From the IMG/VR virus record IMGVR_UViG_2529293216_000013: a DNA stretch of 35,441 nucleotides. One strand, given 5' to 3'. Within the stretch, counting starts at the first letter, position 1. Each line of letters starts with the position of its first letter. Shown here piece after piece: positions 6,184 to 7,327 of the stretch. This DNA is from a virus. Taxonomy: Duplodnaviria; Heunggongvirae; Uroviricota; Caudoviricetes. A program made the position numbers and the translations under genes. The notes beneath the pieces are model-generated. The model made no database searches, was not told the DNA's origin, and worked only from the letters and a program-made list of their open reading frames with translations.

Positions 6184-6833
6184 GCCGCCATCTCCCTGAC
6201 CAGTTTTTCTGCCTGCTGGCGAACCTGCGCCAGAAAGGCCTCACCACATGCCTCAAGTTCATAGCGCCCGATGTAGCTGATTGCCGGTCCCTTCCAGGTC
6301 TTGTCGAAAACAGCAATAGCACCAGCGAAGAAAGCGCCTGTCGGCACCTGCTTCTCATCCTTCGGGATAAACCAGGCAGGCAGTTCAAAACCAATACGCC
6401 CGCGAATAAAAGCAATATGATCTGCATCTTCCGGCCACCACACTTCGCTGGTGGCAGCTTTGATCAGGAAAACATAGCGCCCGCCTTTATCACGCATGGC
6501 ACTGGCATGCTTCATGATGTAACGCATGCCGGTGATGTATTGCCCCTCATGCTGACTGGCGCGGCTGTATGGGGGATTACCAAAGGCAGCACCTTTAAGC
6601 TCCGCAAGACGTTCTGACCAGTCATGCGCCAGCGCGTTGTCTTCCGCAGTGTAATAAGCGGCACATTTGGCGTTATCACCGTCAGTGAACAGATCCAGAA
6701 CAAACGGGCCAAACAGGGTGTTAATTCCCCAGAAAATGTTGTCCGGCGTGCGCCACTGATCGCCCACTTCCTTCAGTTCATGGGCTGGTTTGTTCCGCAG
6801 CTCCACCAGCGCCTGGCAATATTTATTACTCAT
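6180..6833 (-). CDS. Phage N6-adenine DNA methyltransferase (Dam-like)
   Basis: Motif FGNPPYSRA (DPPY-type catalytic motif); start placed at MSNKYC, where TAATG overlaps the upstream gene stop. Confidence 0.7.
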   Translation of the reverse strand: MSNKYCQALVELRNKPAHELKEVGDQWRTPDNIFWGINTLFGPFVLDLFTDGDNAKCAAYYTAEDNALAHDWSERLAELKGAAFGNPPYSRASQHEGQYITGMRYIMKHASAMRDKGGRYVFLIKAATSEVWWPEDADHIAFIRGRIGFELPAWFIPKDEKQVPTGAFFAGAIAVFDKTWKGPAISYIGRYELEACGEAFLAQVRQQAEKLVREMAA

Positions 6834-7327
6834 TAAGCCCCCACGTAATTCCCTGACAGATACCACTCTTCACCCGATACAGCGCGCTTGCTGCTTTTCC
6901 GTAAGCACCGCTCACAACGCGCCAGAAAATTGTTTCGTTCTGGCTGGGAGTGGCTTTCACGGAATGCCGCCATCCACACCGTTGCAGCACGACGGTATAA
7001 GCCCCTGGACTCCAGTTCTTCAGCCTGGCGGGTCAGGCACAAAATCACCCGGGGATCGTTAGTGCCGACATAGAAATTGCGCACAGGTCTGGTTTCACGA
7101 ACTGGTTGTGGTTCCGGCTCCTGCGCTCTCTCAGTCAGGCGCGGGAAATGTCTGCGTGTATCCCCTTCACAACGGTGAGCCACACGCCCACTCTGACGTA
7201 ACTTGCTTGCAGACTGCAGAACGCGCTGCCGTGAGTAACCTGCAAAAGCATCCGCAATGTCTCCGGAAGTACAGCCCGGATGGGCTTCAATGAATTTCTG
7301 AACGTCATTCAAAAGACTCATGCTCAC
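6833..7327 (-). CDS. PerC-like transcriptional regulator (putative)
   Basis: 164 aa; LESRGLYRRAATVWMAAF resembles the PerC/Pch signature GLWRRAA..W. Confidence 0.4.
   Translation of the reverse strand: MSMSLLNDVQKFIEAHPGCTSGDIADAFAGYSRQRVLQSASKLRQSGRVAHRCEGDTRRHFPRLTERAQEPEPQPVRETRPVRNFYVGTNDPRVILCLTRQAEELESRGLYRRAATVWMAAFRESHSQPERNNFLARCERCLRKSSKRAVSGEEWYLSGNYVGA

Follow-up and report, generated by a model that had tools for sequence, protein, structure and literature searches.

What does a gene with a PerC-like signature do directly behind the replication initiator gene of a lambdoid prophage? The question is raised by an ORF within a 35,441-nt stretch of DNA (IMG/VR record IMGVR_UViG_2529293216_000013; the whole stretch is referred to below as the window). 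A sequence-only reading had proposed that this ORF encodes a regulator akin to the prophage-borne PerC/Pch proteins, which cross-activate virulence regulons in pathogenic Escherichia coli, and that it sits where a helicase loader gene would normally follow the O-like gene. It could thus be a virulence regulator, a stand-in for the loader, or an early gene that serves the phage in some other way.

Identity and genomic context of the ORF

The ORF is almost certainly yfdN, an already annotated PerC-family gene. The 100%-identical gene of O157:H7 carries the RefSeq name "yfdN, PerC family transcriptional regulator" (WP_072141203.1), and PHROG 1324, described as "transcriptional activator", matches the whole protein (E 4e-77). 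The gene is not new, as both its name and its PerC assignment are already in RefSeq. Of its two candidate start codons, the GTG at 7327 shares bases with the TGA stop codon that ends the upstream initiator gene. The ATG at 7321, two bases past that stop, is probably the real start of a 162-aa product, because it is preceded by GGGGG and opens the MSLL N-terminus that is common to the homologues. At the other end, the yfdN stop codon overlaps the start of dam (TAATG). The K-12 gene (b2357, in the prophage CPS-53/KpLE1) shares 97.0% nucleotide identity with the O157 copy over its full length and has the same neighbours, with an O-like HTH gene lying upstream and yfdM, a methyltransferase gene, downstream, but unlike the O157 copy it is located in a decayed prophage.

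Positions 1-11315 of the window are 100% identical to an O157:H7 lambdoid prophage, and the remainder is unrelated to it, comprising the terminal part of a Mu-like prophage along with a P4-like satellite. The minus strand of the lambdoid part encodes, in this order, a Cro-like protein, a CII-like protein (ymfL), a DUF4222 protein, the O-like initiator, YfdN, Dam, a protein consisting of the LexA N-terminal domain only, RusA, a KilA-N protein, a DUF968 protein and Q (Table 1). No promoter-like or terminator-like sites flank yfdN on the minus strand, and the G+C content of the gene (0.53-0.56) is like that of its neighbours. Given the lack of its own promoter or terminator and the matching G+C content, yfdN is, judged by these sequence features, a member of the early operon and not moron-like. 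The overlapping or abutting start and stop codons, together with the lack of a separate promoter or terminator, suggest co-transcription, and yfdN would be expressed off the early rightward transcript with the initiator gene and dam.

Table 1. Features of the yfdN region, with positions in the window
Feature	Position	Strand	Basis or remark
O-like replication initiator (HTH_36), directly upstream of yfdN	7324..8265	-	PHROG 391, E 4e-135; Pfam HTH_36
15-nt iteron array inside the initiator gene, probable ori	7816..7972		Classic ori-inside-O layout
Initiator C-terminal tail REDPYFKASYDNVDYSQIPAGFRG, resembling the C-terminus of E. coli DnaT	7327..7398	-	Sequence comparison
yfdN ORF	6833..7327	-	164 aa from GTG 7327; probably 162 aa from ATG 7321
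Predicted N-terminal winged helix of YfdN, residues 1-60, three helices and a beta-wing	7142..7321	-	AlphaFold pLDDT 82-89; weakly Ren-like
Pro/Glu-rich linker, residues 61-89, poorly conserved	7055..7141	-	pLDDT 45-48; length and sequence variable
PerC-type three-helix domain, residues 90-148	6878..7054	-	Pfam PF06069; model pLDDT 91.6; alignment
GLYRRAATVW, core PerC signature	6974..7003	-	G, RRAA and W invariant across the family
Phage N6-adenine methyltransferase (Dam), directly downstream of yfdN	6180..6833	-	TIGR01712, E 1e-75; Pfam Dam
LexA DNA-binding-domain-only protein, conserved module member	5857..6183	-	Pfam PF01726, E 2.9e-19; synteny

Distribution of yfdN and its relatives

Of 5426 complete E. 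coli genomes, 2674 (K-12 is one of them) have a yfdN copy with at least 90% identity, and at least 80% of the gene is retained in 2547 of these 2674 genomes. Because copies this similar are present in about half of the complete E. coli genomes, K-12 among them, yfdN is not pathogen-specific, and this distribution argues against a virulence-specific role. Isolated phages with yfdN include SfV, SfII, SfIV, mEp460, ST64B, and Stx2c and Stx2k phages, among others, and yfdN genes also occur in prophages of Salmonella, Shigella, Citrobacter, Enterobacter, Erwinia, Kosakonia and Klebsiella. An exhaustive profile search revealed a diversified family of two-domain proteins that are 23-47% identical to the window protein and derive from Salmonella, Enterobacter, Erwinia, Citrobacter, Kosakonia, Lelliottia and Klebsiella. 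Scans of viral contigs with three divergent members (P0162, P0188 and P0130) yielded no loci. In itself, yfdN is an ordinary gene, already named and extremely common, and its subfamily represents a core-operon accessory gene that is mostly found in non-pathogens.

Gene order around yfdN-like genes

Synteny was compared in 15 IMG/VR loci representing three divergent subfamilies (27-48% identity) and in six further homologues (23-41%). In all 15 IMG/VR loci and for five of the six further homologues, the yfdN-like gene comes straight after an initiator gene, its start codon overlapping or abutting the initiator stop, and this order is kept down to about 25% identity. The upstream initiators are 253-350 aa long. 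The sixth homologue, which is 23% identical and assigned to the "ANR family" by NCBI, is located in an integrative island behind a KilA-N gene.

Downstream, the yfdN-like gene is usually followed by an adenine methyltransferase gene, of which there are four kinds (Dam, PF05869; MT-A70, PF05063; D12, PF02086; and one without a Pfam match), and some loci lack any methyltransferase gene. A functional tie between yfdN and the methyltransferase was considered and rejected, as the loci L008 and L034 and phage Ayreon have yfdN without a methyltransferase, phage cdtI has the methyltransferase without yfdN, and the module of mEp390 has neither. In nearly all loci, the module continues with genes for a LexA-N-like protein, RusA and a DUF968 protein, followed by Q where the contig is long enough.

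Domain architecture of YfdN

The Pfam profile PerC (PF06069) matches YfdN residues 100-152 with 32.9 bits (E 7.7e-8), above its gathering cut-off of 22.6, with the match spanning only positions 5-57 of the 90 profile positions. As canonical PerC reference served an 89-aa ORF from a pEAF-like plasmid, with part of a perA-like AraC gene and a short ORF resembling perB upstream of it; by BLASTP, YfdN is 30% identical to this enteropathogenic E. coli (EPEC) protein over 56 aa (E 6e-8). The A, L, E, G, RRAA, W and C columns are invariant in an alignment of YfdN, EPEC PerC and 13 single-domain PerC-family proteins, and YfdN carries the signature A..LE..G[LF][YWF]RRAA..W … ER … R..C. Judged by the profile and BLASTP matches, GLYRRAATVW is not a chance motif. 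The PerC-like regulator that the sequence-only reading had proposed from this segment, naming an alignment to PerC/Pch proteins as the check, is thus borne out by the Pfam match above cut-off, the similarity to EPEC PerC, the multiple alignment and the RefSeq name.

YfdN shares the core hairpin A..LE..G..RRAA..W....C, which is helix-turn-helix-like, and the ER/RR motifs with PerC (BfpW, from the per operon of the EPEC plasmid pEAF) and with PchA/B/C from prophages of enterohaemorrhagic E. coli (EHEC). All of these proteins are encoded by mobile elements and belong to the same Pfam family. In contrast, the conserved "…MG[IL]…FR" motif that makes up the C-terminal third of PerC and Pch is absent from YfdN in the multiple alignment, and YfdN has EWYLSGNYVGA in its place. 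PerC and Pch are also single-domain proteins of 89-104 aa, whereas YfdN, with 162-164 aa, exceeds the range of about 85-105 aa that is typical of single-domain PerC proteins and has an additional N-terminal winged helix and a linker. Its C-terminal domain furthermore resembles the small three-helix proteins of the ANR family (e.g. Aar): the NCBIfam profile ANR_neg_reg (NF033650) aligns to residues 98-144 (E 8.5e-5) with 22.3 bits, below the curated cut-off of 32, and the two-domain relative in the integrative island bears the ANR name. Unlike YfdN, ANR proteins consist of a single domain, and they are linked to AraC-type regulons.

The AlphaFold model of full-length YfdN, based on an alignment of 20 sequences, has a mean pLDDT of 77, with the three-helix domain at residues 90-148 exceeding 90; modelled alone, this domain again forms three helices (pLDDT 91.6). 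Together, alignments and models show YfdN as a predicted winged helix joined by a flexible linker to a three-helix PerC/ANR-type domain with the invariant residues of the family. The modelled N-terminal domain has the H1-H2-H3-wing fold of MarR/ArsR-like winged helices, and in Foldseek searches of the PDB, the hits are generic winged helices, with ArsR, MarR, BlaI and MecI superposing on it at 1.4-3 Å (around 2 Å rmsd) over 55-67 residues, all with E-values above 1e-3. For the C-terminal domain, the PDB yielded only weak TPR/MIT-like three-helix matches (E > 0.1). No Foldseek match reached E <= 0.001 for the full model against the PDB or viral structures or for the C-terminal domain against the PDB, and a PDB sequence search with YfdN gave nothing at E <= 10. 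The winged helix is conserved, including basic residues of helix 3 and the wing that are invariant, and the model suggests that it contacts DNA or another nucleic acid, while the predicted three-helix domain looks like a protein-binding rather than a DNA-binding module.

A link of the N-terminal domain to the lambda protein Ren is suggestive but weak. In a profile comparison by hhalign, the domain aligned with lambda Ren end to end from residue 2 over 60 columns (74% probability, E 2.9e-5). PHROG 142, "Ren-like exclusion protein", matches YfdN with E 6e-3 and with no single stretch passing alone, and Ren was not among the top 50 Foldseek viral hits of the full model. Lambda ren occupies a slot like that of yfdN, coming next after the replication genes O-P and before the nin region, but unlike YfdN, Ren has no PerC domain.

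yfdN and the empty helicase-loader slot

The annotation of the window, within the prophage and outside it, includes no loader like lambda P or DnaC, in agreement with the sequence-only reading. The sole helicase in the window is a P4-type primase-helicase (30387-32777) on the separate satellite island. Likewise, none of the examined yfdN-type modules (15 IMG/VR loci and five further ones) contains a P-like, DnaC-like or DnaB-like gene, no helicase loader was found in the examined early region of ST64B, and the annotation of the complete mEp460 genome lists none.

The notion that yfdN takes the loader position holds insofar as the gene adjoins the 3' end of the O-like gene, but it fails for a substitution, as YfdN lacks similarity to lambda P and the gene is absent from mEp390. 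A comparison of YfdN with lambda P (PF06992) by hhalign gave a probability of 0.2%, searches of Pfam, NCBIfam and PHROG gave no AAA+ or DnaC match, and the modelled winged helix and three-helix bundle do not include an ATPase fold. The likeness to P- and DnaC-type loaders is confined to the position after the initiator gene with overlapping or abutting codons.

In mEp390, an initiator gene encoding a tail of the kind listed in Table 1 is followed directly by the LexA-N-like gene, and the examined 22 kb of non-structural sequence contain no yfdN, no loader gene and no module methyltransferase gene. In phage cdtI, which we take to be infectious, an in-frame internal deletion has left a 30-codon yfdN remnant between intact initiator and dam genes. 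The initiator gene is followed directly by dam, without yfdN, in four of 78 IMG/VR loci whose initiators share the same C-terminus, a count from a scan with the C-terminal 55 aa of the initiator that returned only near-identical loci. Because it is missing from mEp390, reduced to a remnant in cdtI and skipped in these four loci, yfdN is, on this comparative evidence, a dispensable accessory gene and no helicase-loader substitute; its dispensability presupposes that mEp390 and cdtI are viable phages as deposited. For the same reasons, it does not qualify as an indispensable partner of the initiator in every phage with this module. Moreover, yfdN subtypes are shuffled against at least four unrelated N-terminal types of initiators, which makes a specific partnership unlikely, since a partnership would predict co-variation.

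Thus, yfdN is an accessory gene in the early rightward operon of SfV/ST64B/mEp460-type lambdoid prophages, and by analogy of position it would fit lambda ren, at the head of a nin-like region. The SfV/ST64B/mEp460/mEp390 replicon type as a whole simply has nothing in the loader slot, a gap that yfdN does not make good. The initiators probably recruit the host DnaB-DnaC or primosome machinery themselves, and recruitment through their DnaT-like tail may explain the independence from a loader.

Candidate functions of YfdN

The explanation that we consider best, and to which we give about an even chance, is that yfdN is an accessory early gene for a two-domain modulator of transcription or the nucleoid, and neither a replication gene nor a replacement for the loader. 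YfdN would act early in lytic growth, upon infection or when a prophage is induced, by modulating transcription or nucleoid proteins. The winged helix would place the protein on DNA, and the PerC-type domain would relieve silencing by H-NS/StpA/Hha as in Pch or, alternatively, bind a regulator in the manner of ANR proteins, whose targets are AraC-type activators and H-NS. Because the relatives of the C-terminal domain act on nucleoid or transcription proteins, a winged helix is predicted and the gene would be part of the early transcript, we tentatively favour, with somewhat less than even confidence, a DNA-tethered modulator of silencing or transcription in lytic development as the mechanism. 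Candidate activities that follow from the modelled two-domain architecture are DNA binding by the winged helix and binding of H-NS, an ANR-type target or the tail peptide by the helical domain. Pch activates LEE1 via reduced H-NS binding, which lifts the silencing by H-NS/StpA/Hha (PMC4764244). PerC, too, is an anti-silencer at LEE1. A Pch-like activity should not be assumed for YfdN, as the C-terminal third of PerC and Pch is missing. In the literature found, there are no published tests of YfdN function, of LEE1/ler activation by it or of H-NS relief.

Several other roles have to be weighed against a DNA-tethered modulator. YfdN could be an ANR-like anti-activator, its helical domain blocking an AraC-family activator or H-NS by direct protein contact; sequence-specific binding to DNA would then be slight or absent. 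The ANR_neg_reg match, the ANR name of the 23%-identical two-domain relative and a three-helix fold resembling a protein-binding module agree with such a role, yet the profile score lies under the curated cut-off, no AraC-family gene is linked to the module, and the conserved winged helix with its invariant basic residues suggests nucleic-acid contact, so that we regard it as rather unlikely. Also improbable is a counter-exclusion function, in which the N-terminal domain would be a Ren homologue and the protein would guard the phage against abortive infection, be it by a Rex-type or another system, without a role in transcription. The hhalign and PHROG 142 matches to Ren, the location of yfdN in the ren position after the replication genes and before nin-like genes, and the dispensability expected of an accessory gene would fit this function. 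Against it stand the weak statistics of matches that any winged helix might produce, the absence of Ren from the best 50 viral structure hits and a PADLOC analysis that returned nothing meaningful, and the analogy to Ren has little predictive power.

A direct part in replication seems very unlikely to us. YfdN would then replace a P/DnaC-type loader or adapt the initiator to host DnaB, maybe by binding the initiator tail with its TPR/MIT-like domain, a proposal that draws on the invariable position of the gene right behind the initiator gene with overlapping or abutting codons, on modules without a loader, on the weak resemblance of the C-terminal domain to peptide-binding TPR/MIT modules (E > 0.1) and on the conserved terminal peptide of nearly all upstream initiators. 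It is opposed by the lack of similarity to lambda P and of AAA+ or DnaC matches, by the tail-bearing initiator of mEp390 that has neither yfdN nor a loader, by the loss of yfdN in cdtI and four of the 78 contigs, by the missing co-variation of yfdN subtype and initiator type, and by an Erwinia initiator that has no tail and yet is followed by a yfdN-like gene. In addition, overlapping or closely abutting codons also join dam, the LexA-N-like gene and rusA and are not specific to yfdN. The virulence reading, according to which YfdN of the O157:H7 prophage activates LEE1/ler or other virulence regulons like PerC and PchA-C, is likewise quite improbable. YfdN does contain the PerC core motif, its O157:H7 host carries the LEE, and PerC-family proteins of EPEC and EHEC are interchangeable at LEE1 according to work cited in PMC5293775. 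However, yfdN is not one of the five pch genes described for O157 in the literature found, near-identical copies are present in K-12, in about half of the complete E. coli genomes and in genera without LEE, and the gene is located inside the core early operon and not in a moron position. YfdN also lacks the C-terminal third of PerC and Pch and has an extra domain, and the divergent Pch proteins activate ler hardly or not at all, with no activation of LEE1 by PchD and less than 2-fold activation by PchE (PMC5931665). Virulence cross-activation as the main role of yfdN is therefore unlikely from a sequence perspective, and the PerC-domain match in an O157:H7 prophage should not be taken for a sixth LEE activator. 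An identity of yfdN with pchE was rejected, as pchE is ECs1588, part of a three-gene transcript in a different context. K-12 yfdN has been called "the K-12 PerC homologue" and was removed as a precaution from a ler-lacZ strain (PMC5931665); elsewhere in the literature found, it appears as a hit in overexpression screens.

A broader idea, which we consider a long shot, takes YfdN as one of a widespread class of early phage proteins whose Ren-like winged helix tethers a PerC/ANR peptide-binding module to DNA or the origin region, where it strips H-NS-family silencers from the induced prophage or binds the DnaT-like …IPxGFRG tail. Host DnaT and the phage initiators have this …IPxGFRG tail in common, and if the tail-binding option were true, YfdN would fine-tune the recruitment of helicase, or the restart of host replication, in loader-less replicons.

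A DnaT-like tail on phage initiators

The initiators encoded ahead of yfdN-like genes have several unrelated N-terminal types, and nearly all of them end in …DP.FK.SY.N.DYS.IP.GFRG. E. coli DnaT ends in …SEPDSQIPPGFRG, and eight of nine residues at its extreme C-terminus match the initiator tail. The BLAST match of the initiator to DnaT is confined to this terminal nonapeptide, and a PDB sequence search with the O-like initiator gave no DnaT match. The tail is missing from the Erwinia initiator that precedes a yfdN-like gene. A study of O/P-derived genes had already pointed out an O-like protein whose C-terminal domain is that of DnaT (PMC5509034). The occurrence of the tail on several unrelated initiator types provides a sequence-derived lead on how these phages may recruit DnaB. 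Annotation pipelines name these initiators "primosomal protein I".

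Initiator tail and probable origin

At least four kinds of initiator with unrelated N-termini, each encoded directly upstream of a yfdN-like gene, have one C-terminal tail in common: …DP.FK.SY.N.DYS.IP.GFRG. The end of this tail resembles that of E. coli DnaT, which reads …SEPDSQIPPGFRG, and the phages with tail-bearing initiators upstream of yfdN-like genes encode no helicase loader. The Erwinia initiator (locus L064) lacks the tail.

The O-like initiator gene of the window also contains an array with at least five copies of a repeat unit resembling TCAGATTTTGACGGG. These repeats additionally form inverted pairs, and the peptide encoded by the array is SDSDPSKSDASKSDPSKFDASKS. 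This array is probably the origin of the prophage, and its location inside the O-like gene parallels that of the lambda ori inside O.

Features of the window and of related loci (L-numbers denote the related loci)
Feature	Position	Strand	Remarks
LexA-type protein, 108 aa	5857-6183	-	
Adenine methyltransferase slot after yfdN	6180-6833		compared with L062, L070, L068, L035
Initiator C-terminal tail	7327-7398	-	also at L005-L057, L061, L062, L068-L072, L157
Direct-repeat array, 15-nt units	7816-7972		within O-like initiator gene
112-aa ORF	8275-8613	-	without RefSeq annotation
Mu-like prophage end	after 11315, to about 17.7 kb		mom, tail fibre genes, invertase
P4-like satellite	after Mu-like part, within 11315-35441		integrase at 21641; Psu/Sid/Delta-like genes
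ABC-three-component defence cassette	about 22.9-25 kb		carried by P4-like satellite
Satellite primase-helicase	30387-32777		part of P4-like satellite
Two-domain yfdN relative, 23% identical	L066 6001-6480; L067		Salmonella integrative island

Variable and conserved neighbours of yfdN

Across the relatives, the slot following yfdN is occupied by four different kinds of adenine methyltransferase, namely Dam (PF05869, in some cases joined to a more extensive N-terminal region), MT-A70 (PF05063), D12 (PF02086), and a 250-aa protein without a Pfam match, a pattern that resembles non-orthologous gene replacement in one constant slot. Between this slot and RusA, nearly all such modules examined retain a gene for a protein consisting of the LexA DNA-binding domain only. 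Lacking the S24 peptidase part, this protein could occupy SOS boxes with no possibility of cleavage.

RefSeq shows no gene at 8435-8609, a stretch inside an ORF with full-length homology (29%-35% identity, E about 1e-7) to a conserved 112-aa gene that in relatives, including phage mEp390 (gp41), separates the CII-like gene from the initiator gene. This ORF and the DUF4222 gene (8255-8434) share about 160 nt in different frames.

The distant yfdN relative at L066/L067, named "ANR family" by NCBI, resides on an integrase-bearing island in surroundings unrelated to the lambdoid replication module. Around it lie a KilA-N gene, an HTH_17 gene, and a dATP/dGTP pyrophosphohydrolase-like gene (PF04447), as well as genes for a DNA methylase and for a protein of >1100 aa.

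Composite structure of the window

The window is composite, with homology to the lambdoid prophage ending at 11315. In other O157:H7 strains, about 20 kb separates the lambdoid part from the satellite-carrying segment, and their orientation to each other is the reverse of that in the window, pointing to a rearrangement.
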